64,000 nt of DNA from an uncultured Nitrospiraceae bacterium (GTDB taxonomy: Bacteria > Nitrospirota > Thermodesulfovibrionia > Thermodesulfovibrionales > Dissulfurispiraceae): assembly GCA_963727805.1 (NCBI GenBank), contig CAVSHF010000005.1:1-64000 (forward strand). The letters run 5' to 3'. The notes below the pieces were generated by a model that was not told where the DNA came from, searched no databases, and saw nothing but the letters and a program-made list of their open reading frames with translations. How positions within the stretch are numbered: position 1 is the first letter of the stretch; each line of letters opens with the position of its first letter. The position numbers and the translations under genes were made by a program. Of the stretch, positions 34,745-63,580 are shown in pieces.

Positions 34745-35445
34745 CTACTTATAATCGCGAGTCCGCCCGTTAAGCTACAGATACGATGGTCGAGTAGGCC
34801 GGTGGAATCGCACCACCAGCCCCTCACAGATTCCGTACGTGAACCTCTCGATTCATACGGCTCGTGTCAATCATCAAGTTGAGTCTTTGCAGTCTCAACC
34901 ATACACATTGAGCGATAGTTCCTCCTGGTCACCCAGTTGACTGGTACTCTTTGTGGATTGACCCATCCCCTTCCCTCCACGGCTTATTATCACCGCTTCA
35001 TCGGTACTATTGGACGGTCCGACCCCTTCACCTGCATCGATACTTTCCCCCTTCGTTTGCACTTATAGGGTTTTCTCTTAGCATCAGATGAAGAGTTCCC
35101 GCGTTCCACACAGGAGCCTAGATCAGCTTCATGCCGCCTCTATGCCGGACGCCGTTCAGGCAGTAAACAGGTATCTCCTGAACTAATCCTGATGCAAAGT
35201 AAGAACATCAGTTTTGACGTCGTCCTTTTCCTTTCGACACCTCATCAGCGGTTCGCTTACGCTCATCTCTCTGATCCATCCCTGACACGATCTAGTCGTG
35301 CCTTTTCCTTTAACGCTCACCACCGGAGCCTTTCGACTACAGCAGCTTAAGGTGGGTTGAAGCCTGCTCCTGCAAGCCGGCTTCGAGGGGCCAACCCTCA
35401 TCTTCCTGTGCAGCCTCGTGGCGCACTTACGACCGGAAAGTATCT
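34745..35445 (+). repeat. Type-A site interrupted after +44 by an ORF-less intron
   Basis: CTACTTATAATC...TG|intron|TTACGACCGGAAA. Confidence 0.8.
34789..35426 (-). ncRNA. ORF-less group II intron, copy 1 (638 nt)
   Basis: 5' GTGCG; domain V GAGCCGTATGAA...CACGTACGGA; 3' ...CTCGAC; 5' domains highly similar to the RT intron at 45111-46945. Confidence 0.9.
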
Positions 35446-35503
35446 TGCTCAGTTCTCAAACCGAATCCTTTGCTGCCGAATGTCACAAGGTATAGCGACC
35501 TAG

Positions 35504-36094
35504 TCAGTTTGCGCCCGCTGGTTGGCCTTTCCTATCAATCCCCATGGAAGGGCTGCGATCATGCTTGCTTGCTCTCGCTCTATCAGCAATTGACCTGATT
35601 TCACCCAAAAAATCTTTCATTGCTATTTCAGTTTCGTTCTGAATACTCCCCATAATATAGCTGTTCGTTTTTTTAACAGCATCGTTGATAACTTTCAGTT
35701 CGCGCTGACCTTCCGGGGTTTTGTAATGCGCGATTGCAGCACGCATATCACTTTCTGGCAGCCCATCAACTAAGGATGCTGAATATATTCTTGCTGCCTC
35801 CGCCGAATTCCAGGAATTAGTAACTCTGTGACCAAACTCCTGCGCCGCTACTTTAAATTCTTTCAAGGCTGAGTCGGGTATATTCGGATTGGAGTTCTGA
35901 AGCTGTGCAATGATGCCATCCATTTGTCCCTCAACCATTTTGATTGTATCCTTGCGTACCGATTCTAGCATTGAATCAAATCCAAGAACCTGCATCAAAT
36001 CTTTTGCTAGTTCCGTTTGGTCTGCCGCTAATGCAATATTTGATGTCGTACCAATCAGAATAACAACCACAAACATAATAATTTTCTTCATAAT
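35504..36094 (-). CDS. Exported hypothetical protein (DUF2059-like)
   Basis: Signal peptide; Y...L...D......HYKTPEGQ. Confidence 0.65.
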   Translation of the reverse strand: MMKKIIMFVVVILIGTTSNIALAADQTELAKDLMQVLGFDSMLESVRKDTIKMVEGQMDGIIAQLQNSNPNIPDSALKEFKVAAQEFGHRVTNSWNSAEAARIYSASLVDGLPESDMRAAIAHYKTPEGQRELKVINDAVKKTNSYIMGSIQNETEIAMKDFLGEIRSIADRARASKHDRSPSMGIDRKGQPAGAN

Positions 36095-36112
36095 CATCTC
36101 CTTTTGTCTTGC

Positions 36113-36178
36113 CACTAAGAATCTCACTGGGAGGCGTGGGGAGTTTCACGCCGATCCAGTGAAGCGTGATGTTATATC
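36113..36178 (-). repeat. attC-like site between lepB and the next gene
   Basis: Minus strand ATATAAC...TCACTGGATCGGCGTG...CACGCCTCCCAGTGA...CTTAGTG imperfect palindrome. Confidence 0.65.
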
Positions 36179-36185
36179 GGCTTTA

Positions 36186-37034
36186 TTATTGAACAGGCTT
36201 ACCAATCCTGTCCCAACGAACCTCGCGATTCACTTTATCCCATGACCAATACAAACTCATGACCTTGCCCTCAATTGTATCCTTTGGAACATAGCCCCAG
36301 AAGCGGCTATCGTAGCTCTGATCACGATTGTCGCCCATAACGAATAATTTTCCCGGCGGAATGGTAACTGGACCAAAATTGTCTCTTGGGTCTCGAAAAC
36401 TGCTGGAATCAGTATTGATCTTGTAAGGTTCTGATTGTTCTTTACCATTAATATAAAGTCTTTTGTCTCTGATCTCGACAATATCGCCTTCAACAGCAAT
36501 GAGTCTTTTGAGCCAAGCACGTGAGGGATCCTCAGGATAGGGGAATATGATGATGTCGCCACGCTTTGGTTCTGCAGTTTTATATATTAATTTGTTCACC
36601 AGAATATGATCGCCGAGTAGCAATGTCGGCATCATGGCACCGGAGGATATGTTGTATGCCCGAATCAAATTGGCTTTTACGCCAGCAGATACAAGCGTTG
36701 ATACCAAAAATGATAAAACAACAACGTAGCCAACATATACAAACCATCTGTTATATTTTGCTACTTCGTAGTTCTCTTTATGTTTTTTTGCGATTGATAC
36801 CGCGTCGACGACACAAAAGACGATAAAAGCTAGGCCGCCAACTAACGCGAAGACCAAGGAAGCAGGGTTGGGTACAATGATAAGCACTGAAACTGCAAAG
36901 ACAATCAATAAACATTGCTCAATACCGAATAATATCAGACCTCTTTTGGGGCTGCCCGAGTATAGGTGACCAAGACCCCTTGTCAGTAATGTTAGTAGTG
37001 CAGCGATCCATGGTCGCCTGGGCTTATTGGTCAC
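36186..37034 (-). CDS. lepB: Signal peptidase I (accessory copy, cassette-like)
   Basis: MMPTL..GD, KRLI, GDNRDQSYDSRFWG; box B reads SGAM instead of the usual SGSM. Confidence 0.85.
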   Translation of the reverse strand: MTNKPRRPWIAALLTLLTRGLGHLYSGSPKRGLILFGIEQCLLIVFAVSVLIIVPNPASLVFALVGGLAFIVFCVVDAVSIAKKHKENYEVAKYNRWFVYVGYVVVLSFLVSTLVSAGVKANLIRAYNISSGAMMPTLLLGDHILVNKLIYKTAEPKRGDIIIFPYPEDPSRAWLKRLIAVEGDIVEIRDKRLYINGKEQSEPYKINTDSSSFRDPRDNFGPVTIPPGKLFVMGDNRDQSYDSRFWGYVPKDTIEGKVMSLYWSWDKVNREVRWDRIGKPVQ

Positions 37035-37168
37035 AGTATGCCCCCCAATATTTGATAAATAACAATTATTAAGCCAACTTGGTATTTACTGCCAAAAGTA
37101 TATCACATTGCAACGGAGATTAGAACAAAATCCATTAAAAGTATTTGTCACAATTGCGTTCGTGTGTT

Positions 37169-41890: not shown

Positions 41891-43571
41891 AGGCTGTCCG
41901 ACAATTATCGAAATTAGAGACAAATGACGGATGCCTCGCCATCCTGAAAACATAACGGGGCTATCTGCTTTATACATAGTATCTCCAGCAAAAGCTTCCT
42001 TGGCGTATGGCAGTAGTTGCCCTCTTTCGGAGGCTTTCCTCTTCCCTTCAGGCATTCCCATATCTTTTTCAGATTTACTGCCGTACAGGCAAGGTTAAAT
42101 TCCGACCTTACCGAATTAATTCCTCTCGTCAGAAATGTTCGCAATCCTTTGTTCTCCTTGATATCGCCGATCACAGGTTCAACAATCTGTTGTCTAAGCT
42201 TATATATATATCTTGCTGCAGGCGTTTTCATTTTTTCAGTCATCGCATTGCAGTGAACTTCGTGAGGGAACACCTTCAGAGAGCGTATGCCGTCCTTCTG
42301 TTTGGTACACAGTCGCTGATGCTCACATCCCAAGCATCTCTGACCACGATAGACTCTCACCATCTTGTCCCTCTGTCTGTCAAAATGTTCGCCCAAGAAT
42401 GTTAGCGGGTGATCAGCAGGACAAATATACTCATCCCTTTGTTTATTGTATGTAAAGTTCTTCTTGTCGTATGGGTTGTTTGCCCGCGTCCCACTATTGT
42501 CAGGCATGTATGCATCTATCTTCCTGTCCGATAGAAATGCAATGTTCTCACCGCTAAAATATCCAGAATCAAAACTCCAAATAATACTATCAGCAATTCC
42601 GCCAAGATTCTCTGTGGTTTGTATAACCTGAGGTTGCAACTGGCTGACATCTGCAGCATTCTGCCCCACGTCACTAGCCAAAATGAACCCACCCTTATCC
42701 ACTGTCACCTGAGGATTATAAGAAAGCTCTATCCTGCCTTTCTTATTTTTCATAAAACGACTATCAGGATCTGTCGTGCTTACCTGCTTTAGCCCTTCCT
42801 CATTAACTTTGTCTTGAGCTCCTTGAAGACCTTCTCTGAGTCGACCTATAAAAACATGCCCTTCTTCTTTAGCCCTCTTAACATAGTACTGTGCAGCTTT
42901 CTGAACAAGTTTTTTGCCCTGCCGGGACAGTTGGTCGCTACCCCGTAGTTCACCGAACTGCCGATCCTCACTCTCATCAATCTCTGCCCACTCCTGAAGC
43001 TCACCATCGACAAAGCTTCTCAGAACCGCCAACTCCTCTTTTGTTAATACTCGCCTGTTTGATGCATTTGCCTTCACTTTGGTTCCATCTGTCGACAGAT
43101 GCGACAAATCCAACAATCCTTCCTCTTTGGCAAAACTAACTGTGTGCTTGAAGACTTCCTTTAGTAGATCAGGGTTGTTCTTTCTGAAATCGCTGATAGT
43201 CCTGAAGTCAGGAGTCAGCTTCTCCGCCAAATATATATACACCACGTTCTCTCTGGCATTGCGTGCCAGTCGACGAGATGAGCGCACCCTGTCCAGAACT
43301 CCCATGATCAGCAACTTCACCAGCATTTTTGGATGATATGCCGGATGTCCGGCACCTGAATAGCGGATATCGAAGCAACCATAATCCAGGGAGTCAACCA
43401 ATCCTTCAATGAGAAAACAAATATGATCTTCGGGTATCATATCTTCTAAACTCGGCGGCAGTAGCCAGGATTGCCCTCCATACGACTCAATGTATGCCAT
43501 CGGGTGTACTCCTTGATATCGTTCTTAAATATATTCTACCACCGGATAACTTGATAATTGTCGGACAGCCT
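41891..43571 (-). mobile_element. IS1182 family element, copy 2 (inverted)
   Basis: Same IRs, same 1681-bp length and identical protein to copy 1; GCTAGC on both flanks. Confidence 0.92.
41914..43500 (-). CDS. IS1182 family transposase
   Basis: Identical protein to 32857-34443. Confidence 0.93.
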   Translation of the reverse strand: MAYIESYGGQSWLLPPSLEDMIPEDHICFLIEGLVDSLDYGCFDIRYSGAGHPAYHPKMLVKLLIMGVLDRVRSSRRLARNARENVVYIYLAEKLTPDFRTISDFRKNNPDLLKEVFKHTVSFAKEEGLLDLSHLSTDGTKVKANASNRRVLTKEELAVLRSFVDGELQEWAEIDESEDRQFGELRGSDQLSRQGKKLVQKAAQYYVKRAKEEGHVFIGRLREGLQGAQDKVNEEGLKQVSTTDPDSRFMKNKKGRIELSYNPQVTVDKGGFILASDVGQNAADVSQLQPQVIQTTENLGGIADSIIWSFDSGYFSGENIAFLSDRKIDAYMPDNSGTRANNPYDKKNFTYNKQRDEYICPADHPLTFLGEHFDRQRDKMVRVYRGQRCLGCEHQRLCTKQKDGIRSLKVFPHEVHCNAMTEKMKTPAARYIYKLRQQIVEPVIGDIKENKGLRTFLTRGINSVRSEFNLACTAVNLKKIWECLKGRGKPPKEGNYCHTPRKLLLEILCIKQIAPLCFQDGEASVICL

Positions 43572-43866: not shown

Positions 43867-44021
43867 CAGCGGACTATATTTCGGGTAACCGCCTTCAGTG
43901 TATTCAGGATACCAGCCGGCGATGATTCCTGTGAGCATCTGTTGCCGCAATGACAACACCTCAGCCCTCTCGCTGATTATGTTTATAACTGAAATAACTA
44001 TCGAAAGCAGATTCTCAGTAA

Positions 44022-44082
44022 CTACTCATAATCTCGAGTCCGCTCGATATGGTACAGATACTAGGTTACGACCGGTAATTGT
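44022..44082 (+). repeat. Type-A dispersed site
   Basis: CTACTCATAATC-N30-GGTTACGACCGGTAATT; close copy at 44551. Confidence 0.85.
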
Positions 44083-44178
44083 TACCCAGCTTAGATCATG
44101 GCGTACTTGCACTTTAGGCGTAAATCTACTTCTTCCGTTAATGATGATGCCTTTGGCCCGTCCCTGCTTTCAGCCCTA

Positions 44179-44475: not shown

Positions 44476-44550
44476 TTATCTATCACCATAACGCTAAATA
44501 TGTGACATTATCTATTGTCACCTTTCTGCAAATATAGCACAAATTTAGTA

Positions 44551-44612
44551 CTGCTTATTATCTCGAGTCCGCTCGTTATGGTAAAGAGACTAGGTTACGA
44601 TCGGTAATTGTT
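44551..44612 (+). repeat. Type-A dispersed site
   Basis: CTGCTTATTATC-N30-GGTTACGATCGGTAATT. Confidence 0.85.
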
Positions 44613-45110
44613 AAGCCTTCCCACCCAAGTGACCAGATTATTGCCAAGGTCGTCCCGTCGGACTCCTTTCTTCTTTGATAAATCCGCACGGCACTGCTGG
44701 TTCATTTATTTAGTTGCTGTTGCTTGACTCTGCCTGTTTCGTGATAGAATTGAGAAACCATAGAATAATCTTAAAGGAGACTATTAGATCAAGGAGTTGA
44801 TAAATGGAGAGAAATATTCAACGCGAATTTATGGCAGCGCCGTGGTTTGTCGGTCTTTGGGCAGTTTGGGGAGCTGCATGTTTACTCACTGTATTTCTAA
44901 AATTGCTAATGGGTAAATGGATAATTGCAACATGCTATTTAATAATGGCTTCCTCAATGGCTTTTCTTGTTTATAGATTTTTAAATAACCCAATAATTAA
45001 ATTCCGCATTGACTCAATTGAAATTCTGAACGGGCCTATGTTCTCTGTGAGACATATCTCGAACTCTGATATTTCGCGTCTCGAAAATAAGAGCAATTCT
45101 AAATATAGGA

Positions 45111-46945
45111 GTCGAGTGGCGCGAGGGAATCTCACCCTCACGCTCTCCCAGATCCGGACGTGACAGTCTCCCGTCATCCGGCTCCTATCATCCAGCCTAA
45201 GGTTGAAACCCAGCAATCCAATGGGCGAACAGAGAAGGCTGTCGACAGGCTATCTGTCTCAACCATATTGTCGCCCTCCGGTTATTGGATTTAAACCATT
45301 TGTATTTCCTTTGCATGCATCGGACTAGAATACTATTGAAAGTTTTGAAGATCGGGTACAGTGCAGATTTGTAGTACTGACCATAGTAGTTGATCCAACC
45401 CCGAAGGACTGGATTACAGAAACGTGAAAGCTCTTCAAGGCTCTTGTCACTGCGCCGGTGAATGAACCAACTCCTCATGACTCCACGAATTGCACTGGAC
45501 GCCTTATTACTCACAGCTGGGCTGAAGTTCACAAAGTAATTTCCAGACCGACTCTTTGATCTCCGGGGTCGAAAAGTGTACCCGAGAAAATCAAAGCTCT
45601 CATTCAGGTAACTCTCTTGTCTCAATCCATCCTTACAATAGACAATCTTTGTCTTTTCAGGATGAAGCTCCAGCTTGCACTGCGTAAGCCGCCGTCCAAT
45701 CTCCGTTCTGAGCCATTTGGCTTGCTTCTCACTTTTACAGTGCACAATAGCGTCGTCGGCGTAACGCTCGAAAGGAATGGTTGGAAAGTTTCGTTTCATC
45801 CACTCATCAAACGCATAGTGGAGGAAAAGATTAGCGAGCAGTGGACTTGCGACACCCCCTTGGGGAGTGCCCTTGTCACGGCTCACTCGCGTTCCGTCTT
45901 TCAATTGGGCAGGGGCCTTAAGCCATCGCTCAATGTATAACAGAATCCACTTGCATTCAGTATGCTTTCTAACAGCACGCATAACGAGGTCGTGATCCAG
46001 ATTATCAAAGAACCCTTTGATGTCTAAGTCCACAACCCAGTCATAACGCCAGCATCTCTGACGTGCTACCCCTACCGCTTCAATCGCTGACTTTCCCGGC
46101 CTGTATCCATAGGAATCCTGATGAAAATGAGGCTCCACTTCAGGCTCCAGATACATCTTAACCACCATCTGCGCAATCCGATCTCCTACCGTAGGAATAC
46201 CCAGAGGCCTTATACCTCCGTTATCCTTCGGTATTTCCACGGTGCGCACCGGTGGCGGAAAGTAGCTCCCCGACGACATCCGATTCCAGAGCTTGTAGAG
46301 ATTATCCTTAAGATTCCTCTCAAACTCCTCGATCGATTCCCCATCCACGCCAGCAGCACCACCATTTGCCCTTACCCGTCTAAAGGCTTCCAATACTACT
46401 TGCTTAGAAATACTAAACGGCTTTGCCTTACTCAATAGCTCCTCCCAACAAATGGTTGACTATTCAATAAAGCTGGACGATGTAGCCCCTTTGCTCCGGT
46501 CCCATTACGAACCTTCATCGCTACTGCTGGCTACTCCGCCTCTGTGCTCCGCATCGGTACTCTCATTCTCATGGGGCCACCACTTGAACTTCTCCCTTAG
46601 CATCGGAGCGACAGTTTCCCACGTTCCACACAAGAGCCTGGATCAGCTTCATGCCGCCTTTATGCCGGACGCCGTTCAGGCAGTAAACAGGTATCTCCTG
46701 AACTAATCCTGATGTAAAATAAGATACATCAGTTTTGACGTCGTCCTTTACCTTTCGACACCTCATCAGCGGTTCGCTTGTGCTCATCTCTCTGATCCTT
46801 ACCTGACACGATCTTGTCGTGCCTTTTCCTTAACGCTCACCACACTGGCTCTTTACCAGTGCAGCTTAAGGTGGTTTGAAGCCTGCTCCTGTAAACCGGC
46901 TTCGAGGGGCCAGCCCTCATCTTCTTGTGCAGCCTCGTGGCGCAC
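45111..46945 (-). mobile_element. Group II intron, bacterial class D (RmInt1-like)
   Basis: GTGCG 5' end; domain V GAGCCGGATGAC...CACGTCCGGA; ...CTCGAC 3' end; RT ORF inside. Confidence 0.92.
45197..46435 (-). CDS. ltrA: Group II intron reverse transcriptase/maturase without endonuclease domain
   Basis: AAGVDG, RPLGIPTVGDR, GTPQGG, RYADD, FDFLGY, LRGWINYY. Confidence 0.95.
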   Translation of the reverse strand: MSKAKPFSISKQVVLEAFRRVRANGGAAGVDGESIEEFERNLKDNLYKLWNRMSSGSYFPPPVRTVEIPKDNGGIRPLGIPTVGDRIAQMVVKMYLEPEVEPHFHQDSYGYRPGKSAIEAVGVARQRCWRYDWVVDLDIKGFFDNLDHDLVMRAVRKHTECKWILLYIERWLKAPAQLKDGTRVSRDKGTPQGGVASPLLANLFLHYAFDEWMKRNFPTIPFERYADDAIVHCKSEKQAKWLRTEIGRRLTQCKLELHPEKTKIVYCKDGLRQESYLNESFDFLGYTFRPRRSKSRSGNYFVNFSPAVSNKASSAIRGVMRSWFIHRRSDKSLEELSRFCNPVLRGWINYYGQYYKSALYPIFKTFNSILVRCMQRKYKWFKSNNRRATIWLRQIACRQPSLFAHWIAGFQP

Positions 46946-47164
46946 TTATCTTGGCAAATCATAAATCAATTGCACTTCCTATTAAATGGTTGAAAAAGGT
47001 GGAGCGCAAATTGGTAATTTCTGAAATAGAAAAAAGAGTTACTAAGACGGTCAGTAAAAATGTCGGATGATTTTCCCAATAAAATTATACGCTTGGCAAT
47101 CTTCACTGCTGTTGACTGCAGCTATCATCATTTGGTGGGATCGAGAACAGACCACTGAAAATTC

Positions 47165-53695: not shown

Positions 53696-54185
53696 TAGGA
53701 CCGAACTGATCGATCTTCTTGCCGTTCTGCTCGTTATACATTGAGACGAGAAGCCAGGTTCCCTGGATCTGCTGTGCCAAACTGGGACCCTTGTCCTGGG
53801 CCCAGACATCAGACGCTCTAGACAGCGCCCCACTAGCAAGAACGGCAACAACCAACAAGACCTTTATCGCTTCCTTAATAGACCAGTTCATTGTGTTTCT
53901 CCTTCACTAAGTTCAGCACAGTCCATTACATTACCTTCCTGTTGCATAAAATATTCTTTGATTGCCTGTCCGCAGCAGTTGAAAGCCAGCAAGAATGTGT
54001 GAGGCATCTTAGTTATACTGTCTTTGTTCCATCACACAATTATACTCCTGGATGAGCGTATCATTTCAAGAACGTTACAACATAGCGAGCTTTCTTCCGG
54101 TAACATTTATCCATCTTCTCTGCTAAAATGGTGAGGAGTACAGACGTTTTTTCTAATATACAGTGACCAGTATAAAAGAGGAGGA

Positions 54186-54464
54186 ATGATGGCTAACTAT
54201 AAAATCAAATGTGAAGCTATCGACATCCGCGGTGAATCCGGAATTTGCCCAGGTTCAGCCAAATGCAAAAAGGGGGAAACTTATATCCTGACAGCTCGAA
54301 CACCTGAAACCATAGGAATGTGCGGGCGAGCATTTGCTGCCATACATCCAATGGCATTTGCCATGCGGTGGTCGGAGAAGATGGAGTGGGAGAAGGGTGA
54401 CCACGTTAATGTCATTTGTCCAGACGGTTTCGTGACATACAGACTCTCGAGAATAAAAGAATAG
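54186..54464 (+). CDS. Small Cys-containing protein (TIGR04076-like)
   Basis: C...GMC.RAF..I.P...CPDG.V.Y.L.R. Confidence 0.65.
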   Translation: MMANYKIKCEAIDIRGESGICPGSAKCKKGETYILTARTPETIGMCGRAFAAIHPMAFAMRWSEKMEWEKGDHVNVICPDGFVTYRLSRIKE

Positions 54465-54500
54465 GCTGACAATTTGATGGCAAGAAATCGCTGCAAATAA

Positions 54501-54560
54501 CTACTTATAATCGCGAATCTGCCCACCACGTCACAGATGCTTTATTACAACCGGAAGTCC
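54501..54560 (+). repeat. Type-A dispersed site
   Basis: CTACTTATAATC-N30-TATTACAACCGGAAGTC. Confidence 0.75.
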
Positions 54561-54639
54561 TCAGTGATTCAGTTCTCGGAGAGGCAAGGGCAGTGTTGCC
54601 TATCCAATTCAGTGCGGCGCCACATACGGGTTAGCTGGT

Positions 54640-55290
54640 CTATTGCCAAGAGTTTACGGCTGCTTCAGTCTGCTTCAGCATATCTTTCATCAGCTCACGC
54701 AGGCTATCAGCCATAGTCACCTTCATTGCTTGTTCGATGAATGTCACCTGCGATCCAGTATACTCCTTATCCGCGTCTGTGACTCCCTTCTCGAACTTCT
54801 GGTCAAGAAGGACTTTACCTTTCTGTTCGAACGTTACATGTAAGGAACTGATTCCCGCAACACGGATAATCAGAAAGCCGACTGACTGGGAACACAATGC
54901 ATGAATTTCCGTCTTCATAATGACATCATCGGGTCCTGTGGGTGTGGTCGAGACCTCCGAGAATAGGTTCGAGGCCTGAAGCTCTTTTGCCAATCTCTGC
55001 TGGATTATCTGTGAGGCATCCGTCCCCCACAAAGGATCAGTTGAACAGCCCATCCATTTCGTACCAGCCACATGCTCACTATAGTGCAGGGAACGCTGAT
55101 CAACTGGGGTTGATATCAAAAGGACATGAGGATAACTTGTCTTGGCTGTATAACCGGTTGGAGTCTCCGGAAACGATAGGGAGGCGCCAGGGACACGCAA
55201 CGCAGAACGGTTACACCCGCAACCGAAAAATACGATGACTATCAAAAAAGCAGAAAAAAAAGAACCAGCGGATTTTGCCTTTGGCGTCAT
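54640..55290 (-). CDS. Hypothetical lipoprotein
   Basis: Hydrophobic signal followed by FGC. Confidence 0.7.
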   Translation of the reverse strand: MTPKAKSAGSFFSAFLIVIVFFGCGCNRSALRVPGASLSFPETPTGYTAKTSYPHVLLISTPVDQRSLHYSEHVAGTKWMGCSTDPLWGTDASQIIQQRLAKELQASNLFSEVSTTPTGPDDVIMKTEIHALCSQSVGFLIIRVAGISSLHVTFEQKGKVLLDQKFEKGVTDADKEYTGSQVTFIEQAMKVTMADSLRELMKDMLKQTEAAVNSWQ

Positions 55291-55374
55291 ATTCTCTCCT
55301 TTCTTGATTCTACGGCTTTCCCCAGGTGGTTCAGTTACTATTTTGCTTAACCGTGGGAAATATTATCAATCAGC

Positions 55375-55444
55375 CTACTTATAACTACTTAAAGTCATCG
55401 CCGCAGCGATACGGTTCAAGGCTCAAGATTTCTTCCCGTAATCA
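55375..55444 (+). repeat. Type-A site with duplicated start (CTACTTATAA-CTACTTAAAGTC)
   Basis: Box 2 GATTTCTTCCCGTAATC at +43 from 55385. Confidence 0.85.
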
Positions 55445-55547
55445 AGAGGTATGCCTTTCCCAGTGAGAATGCGGTATACACCGACTCCCATTTAGAGGAC
55501 ACATGTCAAGTAACAAAACATCTGCGTTCGAAGTTTTTTTGACTTCT

Positions 55548-57003
55548 CTCATTGTTATGAGCTCCGATGATCATTACCATTGCCGTTTTTTCTTTGAGAT
55601 TCGGCTCCAGTATTAACTGTGCCAGACTCCCATCAGGATCAAAGCCACACCCAGAGATCACTCCCCGAAGAGGGCCCCTTCCGCTTCATAGCGGTCCAGA
55701 AAACCTTCGGATCCGTGCCGGGTCCATTTCGAATTTGCTATTCTTATGGTTTTGATTCACCAGTCCTATAGGGCTCCCGGCCCAGCCAGTAAGGATACCG
55801 GTAACTCTTATGTTGCTGGGTGAGACAGTGTTCCAATCTAACCGTTGGTTTAGTTCCAGTCGGTGTACAGGTTAGCTGCTTCACCCAGTTCTTCATGCAA
55901 ATGCTTTATCAGTCATAAACGGAACTCCATCCCTCATAATGTAATACGCCGCCCTCGCCAGTTTATGTGACAGTGCACTGTGCGCAATCGGTGCGTTTGT
56001 CCTCCTCAGCTTCCGGTCATAATAAGCCCTTGCTTCAGAGTCAAAGCGCCGTGATAGCTCTCCTGCCTCGGCAAATGCCCAGGACAGATACTTGTTGCCG
56101 TTCTTCCTGTTATTTGTCCCTTTCTTTTTGTCATTGCTGAATCTAGCGGCGGGGACCTTCCGGCAGTACGACACATAGTTGCCAACATCTGCAAAGCGAT
56201 CAATAGGACCCGTCTCCATCATAATCGTCAACGCCAGGACCCTTCCAACTCCCGGCATAGTTAAAAGAAGATTATATGGCCGCTTGAGATCTATCTTTTT
56301 TTCTACGGCCACTTCTATTGCTGTGATCTGCCTTCTCAGTGAGTCAATCGCATCTTTACTTACCTTACCGACAAGGGATAGATCATCGTCACCTGCCAAT
56401 AGTGGTGTCACCCGATCCTTCTTCAATGCCTTTATATCATTTGTCTTCATCTTTGCACCTATGTTCCTGGCAACGATGTTTTGAAGGCTCAAGATGAGTG
56501 ATGTCCTCAACCTCACCAGATGCCCGCGCTTCCTCAGAAGATCTCTCAGAGGTCTTTGCTCCTTTGGATAAATGAATCCCTCAGGCAGTATCTTTAGTCT
56601 CAGCATCTCGGCAAGCCAGAACGCATCATCTTCGTCATCTCCATGCTTGAGTCCACAATACTGCTGCACTCTGGAGGGATTCGCCAAGTGGACCCGATAG
56701 CCTTCCCCCATCAGAAGATCTACCAACCAGTACCAATTGTATGTCGATTCCACAACAATCCCTTCAACATCCTTCTTCAACGGTCTGAGCGTCTCTAAAA
56801 TCAGACTCGGATCGTTCCGGAGTTTCTTCTTCCATAGCCTTCGCCCATCCTCATCGATGATCCCCACATATGAATTGTTTGAATGAAGATCAAAACCTGT
56901 GTACAGTCTCATACAGCACCTGCTTAAGGTTAAGATTGTTTCTCTTACCTCAAGCATACCGCTAACCGATATGCTCGGGGAGGTCCCCTCTATATGATTA
57001 TCT
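55548..57003 (-). mobile_element. IS110/IS1111-type element (downstream boundary tentative)
   Basis: Transposase plus ~345-nt downstream non-coding region; removal at TCT gives GACTTCTACTCTACAC. Confidence 0.65.
55893..56912 (-). CDS. IS110 family transposase
   Basis: GFDLHS, VVESTYNWYW, K..D..DA, SYCR.VP...S. Confidence 0.92.
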   Translation of the reverse strand: MRLYTGFDLHSNNSYVGIIDEDGRRLWKKKLRNDPSLILETLRPLKKDVEGIVVESTYNWYWLVDLLMGEGYRVHLANPSRVQQYCGLKHGDDEDDAFWLAEMLRLKILPEGFIYPKEQRPLRDLLRKRGHLVRLRTSLILSLQNIVARNIGAKMKTNDIKALKKDRVTPLLAGDDDLSLVGKVSKDAIDSLRRQITAIEVAVEKKIDLKRPYNLLLTMPGVGRVLALTIMMETGPIDRFADVGNYVSYCRKVPAARFSNDKKKGTNNRKNGNKYLSWAFAEAGELSRRFDSEARAYYDRKLRRTNAPIAHSALSHKLARAAYYIMRDGVPFMTDKAFA

Positions 57004-57253
57004 ACTCTACACTGCGGATATTTTGCCACAGTAACAGTTACCGTTTGTAACCCTCGCACCAAGACCACAATTCAAAATGCGGTGTTCATGTCGTAAATCT
57101 CACCGAAGTAGATCAGCAGAGCCAGGTTAACGCCCCCACTTCAAGCAGTCAATAAGCACAATAAACCTGTGATTGCTAACGGTAGTAGGACATTTCCTCG
57201 GGGTCACCGTGGGAATGTTTCACTGTCAATCGCCATTTCTGCTACTATCTACT

Positions 57254-58162
57254 ATGTCACATGCAAACAGTTCCTTAAGAGCGATTATCTATGCCTTGGC
57301 GGCAAATTTAGGAATTGCGGCGGCGAAAGGGCTTGCCGCATGGTATACGGGGTCAAGTGCCATGCTCGCGGAAGCCATTCATTCAGCAGCTGACTCTGCC
57401 AATGAGATTCTCTTGCTGCTTGGCCTCAGAGAGGCGCGGCGGCCGGTCTCCGATGAGCATCCACTGGGGCATGGAAAGGCGATCTATTTCTGGTCAGTCA
57501 TTGTCGCGATCATGCTTTTTAGCATGGGCGGTATCTTCGCAGTGTCCGAAGGCCTGCACAAGCTGCACTATCCAAAGATGCCTCAGTCGCCGTGGGTCGC
57601 GATGGTGGTGCTGGTTGTTTCGATGCTGCTGGAGATCAGTTCTCTGCGTGGGGCCCTTGCAGAGGTTAGGAAGGTACAGGGCAAGCTTTCTTTAACAAAA
57701 TGGTTCAGGGTGAGCAGGCAAAGCGAGCTTATTGTTGTGGTTGGCGAAGACATTGCGGCTCTCGTGGGACTCTCCCTTGCTATGGTAGCTGTTCTCACGA
57801 CGATTTTGACAGCAAACCCACTCTTTGACGCGCTGGGCACTATCGCGATCGGTCTGGTCCTCGTGCTTGTCGCCGTTGCCGTCGGCATAGAAGTGAAGAG
57901 TCTACTGATCGGTGAGAGTGCAGACCCGGAAATGAAGGCCTCTCTACTGGATTTCCTTTCAGGTCGGCCGGAGGTCGACCATGTCTACAATCTCATTACT
58001 CTCCAACTTGGCAGCGAACTCATGATCGCAGTTAAGGTGAGAATGCATGAAGACGCAAGTGCCGCCAGACTGATTGCAGATATCAACAACGTTGAGGCTG
58101 CAATAAAGGAGAGATTTCCCATGGTGCGCTGGATTTTTTTTGAACCTGATGTAACCGATTAG
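57254..58162 (+). CDS. Cation diffusion facilitator transporter
   Basis: AEAIHSAAD, HPLGHGK, EDIAA, FFEPD. Confidence 0.9.
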   Translation: MSHANSSLRAIIYALAANLGIAAAKGLAAWYTGSSAMLAEAIHSAADSANEILLLLGLREARRPVSDEHPLGHGKAIYFWSVIVAIMLFSMGGIFAVSEGLHKLHYPKMPQSPWVAMVVLVVSMLLEISSLRGALAEVRKVQGKLSLTKWFRVSRQSELIVVVGEDIAALVGLSLAMVAVLTTILTANPLFDALGTIAIGLVLVLVAVAVGIEVKSLLIGESADPEMKASLLDFLSGRPEVDHVYNLITLQLGSELMIAVKVRMHEDASAARLIADINNVEAAIKERFPMVRWIFFEPDVTD

Positions 58163-58369
58163 GCCTGCTCAATATCCTAAACTCTCCCCCGGTGAGGCCG
58201 TAATAGTGTCTTGCCTCATGAAGTATGCTTGTGCATATCTTCTTATGCAATTTCTCTTCTTGCCGCCCCCCCACTGCCCGCGAAGATGAACCCAAATGTC
58301 GAACCGCAAACTTGATAAGTAGTAGACGAAGTCTTGCGGGATTAAACCTCGCTGAGACCTGTAGCTTTC

Positions 58370-58490
58370 ACCAACAAGTTTCGATTTTCAAATTTCTTGC
58401 GGTTTGATGATTACCCTTCGTACCCTCCCTCACCGCCGATAATTTGACGAACGGGGGTGCATGTCGTAACCATCGCGGAGGCCATATCAC
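58370..58490 (-). repeat. Inverted copy of the 8960-9078 repeat
   Basis: Direct by-eye alignment. Confidence 0.75.
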
Positions 58491-58862
58491 GGTTGCCGAT
58501 GTGGTTCTAATAAAATTTTCAGATTTCCGAGTACCACACATTTGATGATTTGCGGAATCAATCATCGTATCGAATGCTGCGACGAAGTTTACAAGAAAAA
58601 CCTATCGTTTTTCCGAAATGTAGAACTCGATAAAGAAAGCTGTTTGCATGGGAGATATTCGTGTCCATAAAAGAAGTGTTTTATGAACAGTTCCCTTACG
58701 AAAAATATCTTCTTGATTAGGCATTAAAAAAGTAAATCGATATTCTATAGATATGTAAGTAATGCCTTCAATGGCTATTGGCGGTTACAGAACTTTCAAC
58801 TAAAGTTCTGTAACTGATTAATAACTGGTGTGATTACACATAGACAATGAAAGGAGATCAAT

Positions 58863-59582
58863 ATGGCTGGAATACCTGATTCGACTGTAAAGACAATAGT
58901 TCTCGTCCACGGCGGCTTTGTGGATGGCTCCGGTTGAGAAGCAGTCTATAAAATCCTCAGGAAAGACGGCTACACCGTCAGCATAGTTCAGAATCCAACG
59001 ATATCACTCGCGGATGATGTTGCCGTAACCAAGCGCGTTCTAGCGACGCATAGCGGTCCCGTGATTCTCGTTGGCCACTCCTACGGAGGAGCGGTAATCA
59101 CAGAAGCCGGCAACGATCCAAAGGTCGCTGGGCTTGTTTATATCACCGCCTTTGCTTTGGATAACGGTGAGTCGGTATCGTCGCTTATTAAGGACCCGCC
59201 GCCGGGCGCTCCTGTGCCGCCGATACTGCCACCGCAGGACGGCTATCTGTTCCTCGACAAGGAGAAGTTCCCTTCCTCATTCGCTGCCGACGTAGATGCG
59301 GAAAAGGCCGCGTTCATGGCTGACTCTCAAGTTCCATGGAGCGTCGAAGCACTCAGTGGCACGATCAGTGAGGCGGCTTGGAGAACCAAGCCGAGTTGGT
59401 ATTTGGTCGCCACCGAAGACAAGATGATCCCACCGCCGGCCCAGCGTTTTATGTCTAAGCGCGCGGGTTCGACGGTCGTCGAGGTTCCGGGCAGCCACGC
59501 GATCTATATGTCGCAACCAAACGCCGTTGCAATGCTGATTGAAAGTGCCTCTAAAGAAGCGAACAAAAAAGCTGGTTCCTAG
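58863..59582 (+). pseudogene. alpha/beta hydrolase with nonsense mutation
   Basis: LVHGGFVDGSG*EAVY: TGA at 58935 where Trp is typical; GHSYGG motif. Confidence 0.8.
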
Positions 59583-59870
59583 TATTTAGCAAGTTGATGC
59601 ATGGATTACAAATGCAGTGGAAATTAACCACTTAGAATTGAAGTTCAACGCCTACCAACGTGGAGTTATAATCTCCTCGCAATCAAGAGCGGCACCCTTT
59701 TCTGGAAAATGTGGGCTCCACCGACGAGTCTTGAATTTTACTTTCACCAGGCAGAATGATTTTCAGTTGTACTGTAGCTCACCGACAGAAAATTGACGTT
59801 ACGTATAGCATGTCGAAATCATCGATAGTAAATAATCGCCCACCATAGAGACTTCTACTCCTACACATCA

Positions 59871-61292
59871 AATATGGTATAACCAGAGTATGGACGGTTG
59901 TTAACCGTTCATAAGGGGCAGGAGGACGTGGTTTCCTACAGGGTCAAGAATCCTTTAATAAGTCAGTCCCCTGTCTCCCAAAGCCATGATAAATTGATAG
60001 GGCTACGAGCTCTTGTAAAGATGGAGATATGGTTGGGAGGCATTCCTGCCTAAGGTCCTATGCGGGAGGTGGTTGGAAATGAGCAAAGCATTCGTTGGCA
60101 TCGATGTGTCAAAAGAGCACTCGACTGCCCAAAGCATCGACAGTGACGAAAAGAAGCTTTTTTATTTAAGGTTCTCAATGGACTCAGCGGGGTTCGCAGA
60201 GCTTCGGACTGCTATTAAAGGATGCGGGGTGAACCCGGAGGATATTGTAGTGGCGATGGAGTCCACCGGCTGTTATCATATCAATCTCTTTTCCTTTCTA
60301 TGTGCGGAGGGACTTCGTTGTGCGGTAGTAAATCCGCTTCTGATATCCAAATTTGTTCAGGGATCATTGAGAAAGACCAAGACAGATAAGAAGGATGCGA
60401 TGACCATAGCGCAGTTTCTTCTGAACAATGAGAAGAAGCTGTGCGTGGTAACGTCATCCCAAGATGCGCAGGATCTGAGGGATCTGGCCAGGGAACGAGA
60501 GTCTCAGTCATGGATGATTGCATCACTTAAGAATGACCTCAAACGGCTGCTGCAGAGCACCTTCCCCGAGCTTGAGACACTCCGCAAGAATATTTACACT
60601 GAGACGATGCTGAACTTTGTTCGACAGTATCCATCGGCCAGATTAATCCGGGAGGCAAAGAGGAAAGATATCGACAAAGCACTCATCTGCCCCGGGGAGA
60701 AGCGCAAAAGAGTCCAGATTAGCGCCGACGATCTTATTGAGGCGGCAAAGCGTTCGGTGGGCTCAGCTGCTACAGCGAAGGAGCTTATCGTCTCTGAGAA
60801 GGCAACCACGATCCTGTATCTTCAGGAAAAGTGTGAGAAGATTACCGAGGCATTGGTGGATGCGTGTGAGGCAACACGGATCGAAGATCTTGAGATAATG
60901 AAGACGCTCGACGGGGTGAAAAACATCCTTGGCAGCAGCTTTCTAGCGGAGATGGGAGAGTTGTCCAACTTTAAATCATATAAGAGCTTGATAGCATACA
61001 TGGGGTTCGATCCATCGACTCATCAATCGGGGAAGCATGTGGGGCCAAGCAAAATATCCAAACGAGGGAATCGTCATATGAGGCGCATCACCCATATAAT
61101 GACACTCGGTTCAATAAAATCTGACAATATATTCAGAGAATATTATCTCAGAAGGATAGCCGAAGGATTGCCTAAGATGAAGGCATTAATGGCGACTTCT
61201 CACAAGCTAATAAGAGTGATCTTCTCTATGCTTACACATAGGATGCCGTTTAAAAAGGAGGTGGCTGCTGTATAGTTGACTTATTATCAACA
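59871..61292 (+). mobile_element. IS110-group element inserted at a CA core in a type-A site (site starts at 59855)
   Basis: Removal restores CTACTCCTACACAT-CA-CCGCAGGGATATTGCT, matching the IS1380-free site at 38750. Confidence 0.85.
60079..61275 (+). CDS. IS110 family transposase
   Basis: VGIDVSK, MESTG, KTDKKDA, YMGFDP..HQSG. Confidence 0.93.
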   Translation: MSKAFVGIDVSKEHSTAQSIDSDEKKLFYLRFSMDSAGFAELRTAIKGCGVNPEDIVVAMESTGCYHINLFSFLCAEGLRCAVVNPLLISKFVQGSLRKTKTDKKDAMTIAQFLLNNEKKLCVVTSSQDAQDLRDLARERESQSWMIASLKNDLKRLLQSTFPELETLRKNIYTETMLNFVRQYPSARLIREAKRKDIDKALICPGEKRKRVQISADDLIEAAKRSVGSAATAKELIVSEKATTILYLQEKCEKITEALVDACEATRIEDLEIMKTLDGVKNILGSSFLAEMGELSNFKSYKSLIAYMGFDPSTHQSGKHVGPSKISKRGNRHMRRITHIMTLGSIKSDNIFREYYLRRIAEGLPKMKALMATSHKLIRVIFSMLTHRMPFKKEVAAV

Positions 61293-61444
61293 CCGCAGGG
61301 ATATTGCTTATTAATCAAGGTTTCTTTCGATAATCAAGACAATTACTGTCTGCGTTATTGGATTGATTTCGGGATTTTATGGTATGTGTAACCGATATCC
61401 CGAAATCGGAAAAGCTTCTTGAGATAAGATTCAGCTCCTCACGC

Positions 61445-61774
61445 TTATCGACTTACTTTGGCGGCAACAAGACGATTCAAGCTTACTCCAGTTTCAGCAG
61501 ATTCGATAGCAAGCAATCTGTGTGTTTCGGGTGTAACGCGAACCACAAATTTTCCACTGTAGTGCCGATTTGCGATCGGTTCTGGAATAGGCTCTCCAGT
61601 CTGTTTCATATCATTAACCGCCTCGGCGACAACTTTGCGGATGCCTTTCAGGGCAGCTTCGGGCGTTTCTGCTAACCAACTTAAGCTTGGAAATTCGGCA
61701 CAAAGTCCGACATACTCCTCGTCGTCTGTCGACCAAGTCACCCTATATGTATAATGATCATTCTTCAATTCCAT
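61445..61774 (-). CDS. hicB: HicB family antitoxin
   Basis: EFPSLSW.A.TPE.AL, YSGKF.VR.....H..L. Confidence 0.88.
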   Translation of the reverse strand: MELKNDHYTYRVTWSTDDEEYVGLCAEFPSLSWLAETPEAALKGIRKVVAEAVNDMKQTGEPIPEPIANRHYSGKFVVRVTPETHRLLAIESAETGVSLNRLVAAKVSR

Positions 61775-62018
61775 AATTCACCTCCAAGATCTCAATGGCT
61801 TTAATCACCTGTTTTACCTGATAGCTCTTAGCTTTCCCTTTAGCATTTTGAATGTTTATCCGCGGATCTCCCTGCCAAGGCGTTCTATATATTCTATGAC
61901 TGCTTCCTTTTTGCCTAGCAGCGCCAAAGTAGTGGTCACAGACGGTGCATAAGTCAGCGAATCTGACATTGCCAGGATTATTCTTCATCTGTGAAACCAT
62001 TTCAGCAATGTTTGGCAT
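61758..62018 (-). CDS. hicA: HicA family toxin
   Basis: NP.NVRF.DL, GSSH, AK.YQVKQV; overlaps hicB. Confidence 0.85.
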   Translation of the reverse strand: MPNIAEMVSQMKNNPGNVRFADLCTVCDHYFGAARQKGSSHRIYRTPWQGDPRINIQNAKGKAKSYQVKQVIKAIEILEVNYGIEE

Positions 62019-62187
62019 GGTTTAATTATAGTATCAATAATAGTACTATGTCAATGGCTGTCAATATAAATATCAACATTGCACTTGAAAATCTAAGGTA
62101 TGACGAATCAGCATGATAATCCGACGGCCATTTATTTATTGCGGACGGGCGGATGGATAAACAATGGATGTGCCCAGTTCTCAGTAA

Positions 62188-62246
62188 CTACTTAAAATCA
62201 ATACCTGAGGGCTTCCTGAATGTACTTGTGAGTACGTGGAAATCAT
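62188..62246 (+). repeat. Type-A dispersed site (divergent)
   Basis: CTACTTAAAATC...GAGTACGTGGAAATC. Confidence 0.6.
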
Positions 62247-62314
62247 CGGCGGTTCAGTTCGCCCCGAGGCGTGGCAATTTTACACCGATCCACGAAGCGC
62301 TTCGTTATGGAGCC

Positions 62315-62614
62315 TTATTCTTTCTCATCCTCTGGATACCAAGTAAACCCTGGCTCAACTTTTCCGTTTAACCCGTCAAAACTCTTCAGTTCGACAATAT
62401 CTTCAACATAAAACAGCGGCGGATCGTCTTCTTTATTATGAAGTTGGGTGTTAATGTCCTCTCTTCTTCTTATAGTCTCTATCGCCTTTAATGCGGCGTC
62501 ATCAGGATTAGTCGCCTCAACCTGACATGATGTATAGAAACCATGTCTGGCATTCCCATTGCCAAGGTTTATGATGAAGTTATGACCATTTATCAATACG
62601 CGATATTTATTCAT
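62315..62614 (-). CDS. Hypothetical cassette-like protein flanked by attC-like sites
   Basis: GGCGTG..TTT.AC.CCGATCC cores at ~62267 and ~62641, each ending GTTATG. Confidence 0.65.
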   Translation of the reverse strand: MNKYRVLINGHNFIINLGNGNARHGFYTSCQVEATNPDDAALKAIETIRRREDINTQLHNKEDDPPLFYVEDIVELKSFDGLNGKVEPGFTWYPEDEKE

Positions 62615-62749
62615 ATTGTTAGGCATAAAGCTCAACGGGAGGCGTGTGAAGTTTCACGCCGATCCCGCGCAGCGCCTTGTTATGTTTCATTTCTTTTAAT
62701 CGTACACGTCCCTTTGTCATCTTTCTGAGACTATAACACAAAATTACTT

Positions 62750-63580
62750 CTACTTATAATCTCCAATGCGGGGAAACTGCTCATTTTGTAAGGGTCGAGT
62801 AGGCCGGTGGAATCGCACCACCAGCCCCTCACAGATTCCGTACGTGAACCTCTCGATTCATACGGCTCGTGTCAATCATCAAGTTGAGTCTTTGCAGTCT
62901 CAACCATACACATTGAGCGATAGTTCCTCCTGGTCACCCAGTTGACTGGTACTCTTTGTGGATTGACCCATCCCCTTCCCTCCACGGCTTATTATCACCG
63001 CTTCATCGGTACTATTGGACGGTCCGACCCCTTCACCTGCATCGATACTTTCCCCCTTCGTTTGCACTTATAGGGTTTTCTCTTAGCATCAGATGAAGAG
63101 TTCCCGCGTTCCACACAGGAGCCTAGATCAGCTTCATGCCGCCTCTATGCCGGACGCCGTTCAGGCAGTAAACAGGTATCTCCTGAACTAATCCTGATGC
63201 AAAGTAAGAACATCAGTTTTGACGTCGTCCTTTTCCTTTCGACACCTCATCAGCGGTTCGCTTACGCTCATCTCTCTGATCCATCCCTGACACGATCTAG
63301 TCGTGCCTTTTCCTTTAACGCTCACCACCGGAGCCTTTCGACTACAGCAGCTTAAGGTGGGTTGAAGCCTGCTCCTGCAAGCCGGCTTCGAGGGGCCAAC
63401 CCTCATCTTCCTGTGCAGCCTCGTGGCGCACTTACGACCGGAAATCGAGACCAGCGCTTGTCGGTAGAGAATGTTATAGCCACCTGAAAGTCATCTATTT
63501 TACCAGTACCAGAAATTTGGTGATTTCCCGAACAAACTACCATGACCGCTTAGTTGAGTGCTTCCTAGTTACACGCTGAG
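62750..63580 (+). repeat. Type-A site interrupted after +44 by an ORF-less intron, followed by a type-B site at 63481
   Basis: CTACTTATAATC...GG|intron|TTACGACCGGAAATC; CACCTGAAAGTCATCTATTTTACCAGTACC. Confidence 0.8.
62794..63431 (-). ncRNA. ORF-less group II intron, copy 2 (638 nt)
   Basis: Appears identical to 34789-35426. Confidence 0.9.

Follow-up and report, generated by a model that had tools for sequence, protein, structure and literature searches.

A ten-copy family of group II introns without a reverse transcriptase gene, probably moved by a related class D enzyme into one box of an intergenic repeat

The window analysed here, a stretch of 64,000 nucleotides, is the first 64 kb of contig C5 (CAVSHF010000005.1) in the 3.89 Mb, five-contig genome of an uncultured Nitrospiraceae bacterium. 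On its minus strand lie two identical copies of a 638-nt group II intron with no open reading frame (ORF) for a reverse transcriptase (RT), each set in a copy of an intergenic repeat, together with one related intron that does encode an RT. The first-pass annotation had described the pair as ORF-less introns at exactly the same register of two different repeat copies, and had proposed a non-autonomous intron retargeted to 'box 2' of the repeat and recently mobilised in trans by the maturase of its relative. Having followed this up, we find that the two introns belong to a ten-copy family of ORF-less IIB-type introns, and think it likely that the class D RT moved them into box 2 of the repeat.

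The ORF-less intron and its copies

The two insertions and their parts are as follows.

34789..35426, minus strand: ORF-less group II intron copy A, 638 nt, delimited by the Rfam families RF01999 and RF00029, its sequence borders and a metagenome joint
62794..63431, minus strand: ORF-less group II intron copy B, with zero differences from copy A
35427..35440, minus strand: 5' exon of copy A with the intron-binding sites IBS2-IBS1, CTTTCCGGTCGTAA, pairing at 5/7 and 5/6 positions, wobble included
63432-63445, minus strand: 5' exon IBS2-IBS1 of copy B, ATTTCCGGTCGTAA, pairing at 5/7 and 5/6 positions, wobble included
34741..34788, minus strand: 3' half of host repeat A, from the +1 C through box 1 (GATTATAAGTAG), repeat families D8 and D9, nhmmer match 34743-34786
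62746-62793, minus strand: 3' half of host repeat B, repeat families D8 and D9, nhmmer match 62748-62785
34829..34863, minus strand: domain V of copy A by RF00029 and the fold, a GAGA-capped helix with a 2-nt bulge (copy B: 62834-62868)
34789..34827, minus strand: domain VI of copy A, with a single bulged A 7 nt from the 3' end in the fold
34918..34978, minus strand: domain IV remnant of copy A, no ORF, with the DIVa-like motifs GGAGGGAAGGGG, AGTCAAC and AGGAGG, compared by eye with the RT-encoding intron

The coordinates and the 638-nt length given for the pair proved exact. The stretches 34788-35087 and 62793-63092 are 100% identical, and identity extends to 35429 and 63434. Read on the minus strand, each copy begins with GTGCGCC straight after the exon ...TTTCCGGTCGTAA and ends in ...CTACTCGAC / ...CCTACTCGAC (..CGAC), followed by the C of the 3' exon. 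The register is likewise the same: in both cases 48 nt separate the intron from the start of a common 16-nt box, ACTTCTACTTATAATC (at 34741 and 62746; repeat family D9), the 44 nt of the first-pass annotation being the distance counted from CTACTT. Apart from this box 1 and a 13-nt box in the 5' exon, the flanks of the two copies are dissimilar, in keeping with the earlier remark that the host sites otherwise differ.

At gathering thresholds, RF01999 (group II domains 1-4) matches the minus strand with 109.8 bits (cut-off 36) at 35280-35399 and 63285-63404, and RF00029 (domains V-VI) with 45.4 bits (cut-off 40) at 34789-34865 and 62794-62870. The same two families mark the RT-encoding intron at 45111-46945, where they score higher. 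The whole intron folds with z = -3.9 relative to shuffles, with a canonical domain V and with exon-binding site 1 (EBS1) in a hairpin loop. The ORF-less intron has the group II hallmarks of a 5' GTGCG, a domain V, a domain VI with a bulged A and a 3' ..CGAC, and its longest ORF spans 72 aa; family matches, fold and the lack of an RT ORF together bear out the assignment as a non-autonomous group II intron. The motifs of its domain IV remnant resemble a stretch of the RT-encoding intron directly upstream of the RT start codon, and the remnant is a putative RT binding site.

A DNA search located ten full-length ORF-less copies in the genome, nine of which agree throughout while the tenth differs by one G-to-A change at position 433 (script comparison). 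It also returned two RT-encoding relatives, which match positions 1-356 only (89-90% identity), one other ORF-less relative (74% over the whole length) and one partial relative (82%). All ten copies follow a 5' exon that resembles TTCC/TGCC..(A/G)GTAA (a GAyTTCC..AAGTAA-like box) and are followed by C as the +1 base of the 3' exon. Since the distal flanks are unrelated among all ten, we regard the copies as separate insertions, and the nine identical copies argue for a recent burst, in line with the recent mobilisation that had been proposed. The 5' exons are listed below.

Copy 1: GATTTCCGAAAGTTA
Copy 2: GATTTCCGGTCGTAA
Copy 3: ACTTTCCGGTCGTAA
Copy 4: GACTTCCGAAAGTAA
Copy 5: GACTTCCAGAAATAA
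Copy 6: GATTGCCCAAAGTAA
Copy 7: GAATTCCGGAAGAAA
Copy 8: GGATTCCCGAGTAA
Copy 9: GATTTCCCGAAGTAA
Copy 10: ATTTTCCCGAGGTGG

Four of these copies sit in the main repeat module, oriented as the repeat, and two lie antisense in a second module (D12 type, described below); degenerate repeat copies host one or two more, as judged by eye, and the remainder are in other sequence. Whether further copies would turn up at unrelated targets, a check that had been proposed with the two-copy claim, can therefore be answered in part: about six or seven of the ten are in recognisable repeats (two antisense), and the other three or four share the pairing motif only. Among 26 genomes searched (this one and 25 relatives), high-identity copies were found in this genome only, and one congener has a single ORF-less copy (80%) at an unrelated site. 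Among related introns in other phyla, none of the close relatives examined lies in the host repeat, with the possible exception of one from a Thermodesulfovibrionia metagenome-assembled genome (L023), whose flanks resemble the repeat by eye.

Public sequencing runs were then compared over 34300-35900. Run X2 is a bioreactor metagenome, and that its library is DNA is a guess. It includes a 400-nt contig in which 34788 is followed immediately by 35427; precisely the 638 nt in between (GT..AC) are missing, and the shorter arm of the contig measures 120 nt. Because this contig omits exactly 34789-35426, it fixes the borders of the intron independently. The same run contains the intron attached to the 5' exon of a different genomic copy, while run X1, which may be the source sample, contains both occupied junctions of the 34789-35426 site. 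The site at 34789 is empty in one population and occupied in another.

As an observation on the surroundings of copy A, a segment of about 7.5 kb that includes it is bracketed by two inverted IS1182/IS5-type transposase genes (528 aa each, with equal Pfam scores) at 32857-34443 (plus strand) and 41914-43500 (minus strand).

Exon recognition and the candidate helper

The features of the RT-encoding intron, and the putative exon-binding sites of the ORF-less one, are these.

45111..46945, minus strand: RT-encoding class D group II intron, 1835 nt, with EBS2 at 46745-46753, EBS1 at 46715-46725 and the EBS3 region at 46657-46664
45197..46435, minus strand: class D RT/maturase, 412 aa, the proposed helper, with Pfam RVT_1 and GIIM, and TIGR04416
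35195..35205, minus strand: EBS1 loop of copy A, UUCUUACUUUG, in which UUACUU(UG) would pair with IBS1 AAGTAA; from alignment A1 and the hairpin loop of the fold (copy B: 63200-63210)
35226..35231, minus strand: EBS2 of copy A, GGAAAA, which would pair with a TTTTCC-like IBS2 at -14 to -9; in an 11-nt loop of the centroid fold (copy B: 63231-63236)
35140, minus strand: EBS3 of copy A, a G at intron position 287, which would pair with the +1 C of the 3' exon (copy B: 63145)

Alignment A1 sets the ORF-less against the RT-encoding intron, and the two are near-identical around two hairpin loops. The three recognition elements compare as follows.

EBS1 loop: ORF-less UUCUUACUUUG (UUACUU, perhaps extended to UUACUUUG) and RT-encoding AUCUUAUUUUA (UUAUUUU)
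EBS2 context: ORF-less AGGAAAAGG (GGAAAA) and RT-encoding AGGUAAAGG (GGUAAA)
EBS3 context: ORF-less CAUAGAGG (G) and RT-encoding CAUAAAGG (A)

The EBS loops of the two introns do differ, as the first-pass annotation had stated, but the hexamer that it had read as EBS2, TTTCGA on the plus strand (35232-35237), is not the homologue of TTTACC in the RT-encoding intron; that homologue is the adjacent TTTTCC at 35226-35231. With the right hexamer, the reported imperfection of the exon match remains for IBS1 (5/7 with one wobble) and largely disappears for IBS2, which pairs at 5/6 positions at the window sites. GGAAAA against GGUAAA is the sole difference between the introns in the EBS2 loop. EBS2 of the ORF-less intron pairs with (T/A/C)TTTCC, which is present before most copies, while that of the RT-encoding intron pairs with TTTGCC at its window site (one G-U) and with ATTACT at its other site (5/6); the RT-encoding EBS1 pairs with AAGATAA and GAAATAA at these two sites.

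The third difference between the introns sits 55 nt downstream of EBS1. We take this position to be EBS3, because its base and the first base of the 3' exon vary together, in three pair types: among 46 related introns in which both could be read, 37 have a Watson-Crick pair (A:T 28, G:C 5, T:A 4), 3 a G-U pair and 6 a mismatch, a count that overstates independence given the near-duplicate rows among the 46. In the genome studied here, the ORF-less intron combines G with a +1 C (10/10) and the RT-encoding intron combines A with a +1 T (2/2). One substitution each in EBS1, EBS2 and EBS3 thus appears to separate the specificities of the two introns, the preferred site being GAyTTCC-nn-AAGTAA followed by C for the ORF-less intron and TTTACC-AAATAA followed by T for its RT-encoding sibling.

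Whether this amounts to retargeting depends on where the sibling itself inserts. A second copy of the RT-encoding intron on contig C3 matches the window copy at 1833/1835 positions and lies antisense within a repeat module whose box 1 is clear; upstream of the window copy is box-2-like sequence, with no convincing box 1 seen downstream. Since both RT-encoding copies also lie at box-2-like or repeat sites, the single changes in the three elements would represent a shift between variants of one box and not, as first supposed, the acquisition of box 2 as a new target.

The 412-aa RT has Pfam domains RVT_1 and GIIM only, with no DNA-binding or endonuclease domain, and scores 437 bits on NCBIfam TIGR04416. 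Its C-terminus, with LRQIACRQPSLFAHW at residues 391-405 and the protein end ...LRQIACRQPSLFAHWIAGFQP, fits the class D motif LX3AX3PXLF[V/A]HW as given in extracts of PMC4615759. Over 405 aa it is 57% identical to a 419-aa RT from a Sinorhizobium medicae plasmid that has LRKLARENPGLFVHW at the same place, and whose record we infer from species, length and motif to be Sr.md.I1/RmInt1-like. Taken together, these features support the assignment of the RT at 45197-46435 to bacterial class D, as had been claimed.

Six group II RT genes of three kinds are present in the genome: two of class D, one of a second kind and three of a third. RTs of the second and third kinds share 33-36% protein identity with the class D RT, their printed C-termini lack the class D motif, and in the genome DNA search their introns gave no match to the ORF-less intron. 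Class D is the only kind whose intron has RNA related to the ORF-less intron (domain I, 324/356 identical). Within the 26 genomes an intact class D RT is found in this one only; the congener with the 80% ORF-less copy also has a class D RT fragment (residues 2-255). This distribution of related sequence points to the class D RT as the probable helper of the ORF-less intron.

As a separate observation, a 5' end could be read in 44 related class D-type introns, and 12 of these (L027, L031, L033, L034, L055, L056, L061, L062, L065, L073, L087 and L090) follow ..GA(T/C)GA(C/T)N, which resembles the YADD motif of another RT gene; such introns would be nested, each within an RT gene.

Domain V is usually the best-conserved part of group II ribozymes. 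In the comparison with the RT-encoding intron, domain I (positions 1-356) is 91% identical, which upholds the claim of closely similar 5' domains, while domains V-VI are identical at 65 of 90 positions (72%). The other ORF-less relative in the genome is 74% identical in domain I and 78% in the rest. The ORF-less intron therefore does not appear to be a plain deletion derivative of the present RT-encoding intron. Because identity breaks near position 356, although domain V would be expected to be conserved best, the comparison suggests a mosaic in which domain I comes from the RT-intron lineage and the 3' domains come from an older ORF-less one.

We propose that the intron RNA is transcribed as part of its host locus and that its splicing is assisted by the 412-aa class D RT/maturase of the related intron, of which the genome has two copies. 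The resulting ribonucleoprotein would reverse-splice into DNA that pairs with EBS2 (GGAAAA), EBS1 (UUACUUU(G)) and EBS3 (G), and the DNA copy would be made without an endonuclease, probably primed at replication forks; splicing, helper identity and priming route are all inferred. Repeat copies would be hit at one register because the preferred site corresponds to their conserved near-palindromic box 2. When introns were removed in silico and every genomic site with a +1 C was scored over 13 positions, wobble counted, occupied sites scored 9 to 13 of 13 pairs. They also share more than pairing needs, such as GA ahead of TTCC, as would be expected if the RT read distal exon bases, a behaviour that extracts of PMC4615759 describe for RmInt1. 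Extracts of the same paper describe, for class D introns lacking an endonuclease, a bias to one strand and insertion into the lagging-strand template. Eight of the ten ORF-less copies and both RT-encoding copies lie on the strand that is G-rich over the surrounding 200 kb, which we take to be the leading strand; this orientation would be expected if the intron RNA inserts into the lagging-strand template.

Several results weigh against this proposal or parts of it. The strand bias is confounded, as the repeats themselves lie mostly on the same strand and the bias may come from the targets. IBS1 at the window sites, GTCGTAA, is the weak part of the pairing, at just 5/7 with one wobble. Pairing alone fails to explain site choice: of the genomic sites with a +1 C, 159 reach 12 or 13 of 13 pairs with wobble counted, 2 of them occupied and 157 empty, and the other eight occupied sites score 9 to 11. 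In domain V the G of the catalytic AGC lies opposite an A, and there is one extra A relative to the RT-encoding intron, and with domains V-VI just 72% identical to those of the proposed helper's intron, cross-recognition by its RT is an assumption. Were run X2 an RNA library, its joint would be a spliced product and not an empty allele; in the RNA run X5, contigs lie within the intron interior only and include no ligated exons, a result that is not evidence against splicing.

It is also conceivable, though in our view unlikely, that the intron is a real ORF-less retroelement whose helper is another or a lost RT, or whose family is now immobile. Domains II-VI are about 72-78% identical to either genomic relative, four more group II RT genes are available in the genome, and RT specificity is unreadable from sequence. 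Against this stand the low identity of those RTs to the class D enzyme and the absence of a DNA match between their introns and the ORF-less one, the 91% identity of domain I to the class D intron, the similar motifs retained in the domain IV remnant, and the nine identical copies, which speak for recent activity alongside two intact copies of the class D RT.

The host repeat and its other occupants

The approximate minus-strand sequence of the repeat is ..AACATTCTCAACCGACGAGCGCTGGTCTC-GAyTTCCGGAAGAAAGCTTG-(about 30 nt)-GATGACTTTAAGTAG, often with a further conserved block within about 10 nt after it. It is modular, measures about 90-130 nt and ends in ..GAyTTTAAGTAG; box 2 is its near-palindromic GAyTTCC.GGAA part, which contains the intron site. 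An nhmmer profile built from 14 window copies gave 67 genomic matches with E up to 1, 45 of them with E up to 0.001, clustered and locally co-oriented, with 20 of 21 on the minus strand between 8.9 and 67 kb of contig C5. The D12-type module has 35 matches in the genome, often directly upstream of the first module. Of seven further congeneric genomes searched, three have the repeat; a genome from a different genus gave a weak match, and the 33 remaining relatives searched gave none. The repeat thus appears to be genus-restricted.

63476..63569, minus strand: D12-type module directly upstream of host repeat B
44019..44088, minus strand: unoccupied repeat of the same subtype, with ATTACCGGTCGTAA followed by CC across the site; a second at 44549-44620

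Among 41 uninterrupted strong copies of the repeat, 12 have a +1 C and none pairs at 11/13 or more positions with the ORF-less intron; one of them, at C3:1-72, scores 10/13, the same as the two occupied window sites. Window repeats at 26.5, 29.0 and 47.2 kb fit the RT-encoding intron at 11/13 with a +1 T and are empty.

Other mobile elements also meet the repeat. An IS110-family insertion sequence (IS) interrupts box 1 at 61277 (gene 60073-61275) and at C3:796390, at the same point, between ..ATAATAAGT and CAACTATACAGC.., and lies directly beside a repeat copy in another species (genome G004, contig C102); this IS is the second mobile element with a specialisation for the repeat. Separately, we observed that a group II intron of the second RT kind (C3:6831-8800, minus strand, 500-aa open frame) ends directly beside a D12-type module at C3:6761-6830. 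An IS91-type Y2 transposase and a tyrosine recombinase form a pair at 24198-26315, with identical recombinase scores at eight places in the genome (C3, C5), several of them within 0.5 kb of a repeat variant ending in ..GACATG...

We also asked what the repeat itself might be. A tRNA or tmRNA (transfer-messenger RNA) remnant was rejected, as ARAGORN found none in the window. The repeat can be read as the C-terminal end of a coding sequence (..ERWSRFPEESLYNEPCPCGDDFK and a stop), a candidate dismissed because the upstream open frame reaches at most 58 codons (29 copies with a terminal stop located by script, of 45 examined; in four, the chosen stop gave a one-codon frame). No ORF of at least 60 codons in the genome has a repeat-type tail (12 motif matches, all unrelated), and with respect to the upstream gene the reading falls in frame 0, 1 and 2 in 3, 6 and 6 cases, which gives no coding continuity. 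In this protein-like reading an in-frame TGA recurs, and at 19649-19744 it replaces a Cys codon (..PCL-stop-GDDFK against ..PYHCGNDFK); it is most likely chance in non-coding DNA. A preference for the position behind co-oriented genes is unsupported (31/45, with 28/45 in an opposite-strand control), and a promoter and terminator scan of 47000-64000 gave no excess over shuffles and none at repeats. A link to the recombinase at 27486-28460 was set aside, since genomes in which no repeat was found also have homologues of it, and the homologue in genome G003 lies away from arrays.

The arrays of repeats lie between unrelated accessory genes and many IS elements (C5 from 8900 to about 67 kb, C3:775-808 kb, C5:551-567 kb and contig C4). 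A hicAB segment is shared at 89% identity with another species of the genus, the homology starting at the end of box 1 while the preceding repeat bodies differ; the repeat may mark junctions of exchangeable segments. The HicA/HicB pair itself (61445-62018, minus strand) has a perfect TTGACA-18-TATAAT promoter match at 62054-62025, and the copy in the other species lies in a different neighbourhood.

Such features recall integrons, and the repeat might be taken for an integron-type attC site and the intron for the functional counterpart of group IIC-attC introns. Co-oriented arrays between unrelated accessory genes, targeting by IS110-family elements as well, the start of the hicAB homology at the end of box 1 and an insertion point that reads ..TAA with C beyond it would all suit this reading, which we nevertheless consider very unlikely. 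The repeat lacks RYYYAAC...GTTRRRY boxes and any conserved hairpin: RNAalifold found zero consensus pairs on either strand in 40 copies, and ten single-strand DNA folds gave z of -1.87 to +1.46. No integron integrase above the TIGR02249 cut-off was found genome-wide, both tyrosine recombinases of the window scoring far below it, and attC was rejected as a candidate on these grounds. Moreover, the intron is of IIB type, with an EBS2 and a class D relative, and four of the six clearly repeat-borne copies are oriented as the repeat, whereas IIC-attC introns oppose cassette transcription (extracts of PMC3001079). There is a small chance that the repeat instead joins the cassettes of an integron-like system that needs neither attC hairpins nor a canonical integrase, and that mobile elements have specialised on it independently.

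Homologous exchange is conceivable for two window copies within one repeat family, but spread of the intron as DNA, by segmental duplication or gene conversion between repeats instead of retrohoming, is most improbable, as identity goes no further than the intron and the 13-nt box, all ten copies have unrelated distal flanks, the intron-free allele is cut exactly at GT..AC, three or four copies outside recognisable repeats still have the IBS motif and +1 C, and two copies are antisense in another module; the claim of independent insertions is upheld by the differing flanks and the exact empty allele.

Two further window features were recorded. A third repeat, at 23135-23190, 36120-36175 and 62628-62683 (minus strand, intergenic), forms a GC-rich hairpin, GGGAGGCGTG..CACGCC..TCCC, flanked by ..GTTAT, with compensating changes in the stem between copies. 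A c-di-GMP-I (cyclic di-GMP) riboswitch (20157-20238, plus strand; Rfam 48 bits) lies upstream of a HAMP-GGDEF gene at 20607-21959.

Relation to known mobile introns

Our preferred reading, a family of ORF-less introns served by a class D RT, has its closest precedent in the TeI3 ORF-less introns of Thermosynechococcus elongatus, which are driven by TeI4 RTs of related introns (Mohr, Ghanem and Lambowitz 2010; here from extracts of PMC2882425). The intron described here shares with TeI3 the absence of an RT ORF, near-identical copies, EBS/IBS pairing at each site and a related RT in the genome. As those extracts describe for TeI3/TeI4, the ORF-less IIB-type introns of this genome outnumber their ORF-containing relatives and lie mostly outside genes, and they combine good EBS/IBS pairing with their flanks with a diverged target specificity. 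Mobilisation by the RT of a related intron was demonstrated there by assay, and we propose the same from sequence alone. The TeI4 RTs, however, have an endonuclease domain, unlike the class D RT of this genome, and TeI3 introns all share one deletion of a known ancestor, whereas our intron looks mosaic. A further difference from TeI3 is that the copies concentrate on one box of a repeat.

With respect to target and enzyme, the RmInt1 family offers the nearer comparison, RmInt2 (class D / IIB3) being described in extracts of PMC4615759 as homing into the inverted repeats of ISRm17. According to these, RmInt RTs likewise lack the D (DNA-binding) and En (endonuclease) domains and have the class D motif at the C-terminus, and the introns occur as identical copies, a sign of recent spread, with a bias to one replication strand; RmInt2, moreover, homes into a repeat in which either strand provides sites. 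Unlike the ORF-less intron, RmInt introns encode their own RT, and the target here is an intergenic repeat, not an IS end, in a host lineage of Nitrospirota type, to judge by the closest RT relatives.

Group IIC-attC introns provide a third parallel: they, too, are specialised on a short site that recurs in arrays, between accessory genes (extracts of PMC3001079), with IS110/IS1111-type elements sharing the target; IIB introns, too, occur in integrons or in clusters of attC sites lacking integrases (CALINs), according to extracts of PMC7923331. Unlike the IIC-attC introns, the intron studied here has an EBS2 loop that covaries with the exon, a class D RT relative and a hairpin-free target, no integron integrase was found in the genome, and the intron is mostly co-oriented with the repeat and not on the 'bottom' strand.

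The mechanism is already textbook, and the host repeat is the only part that could prove to be new. If the repeat is a cassette junction, class D and second-kind introns and IS110-family elements would have specialised on it independently (an IS91-type association is only suspected), and the ORF-less intron would be the class D counterpart of IIC-attC introns; should the repeat prove to be a recombination site, the arrays would merit study in their own right. For group II introns, the pair offers a compact natural case of an intron changing its address, by one base per recognition element with flanking exons that differ to match, and its best features are this retargeting, the mosaic build and the empty allele surviving in an environmental population. 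Class D introns that lack an endonuclease serve as gene-targeting tools, and the two introns are a ready test system for the rules by which such introns choose their targets, as well as for the tolerance of a class D RT towards a foreign ribozyme.

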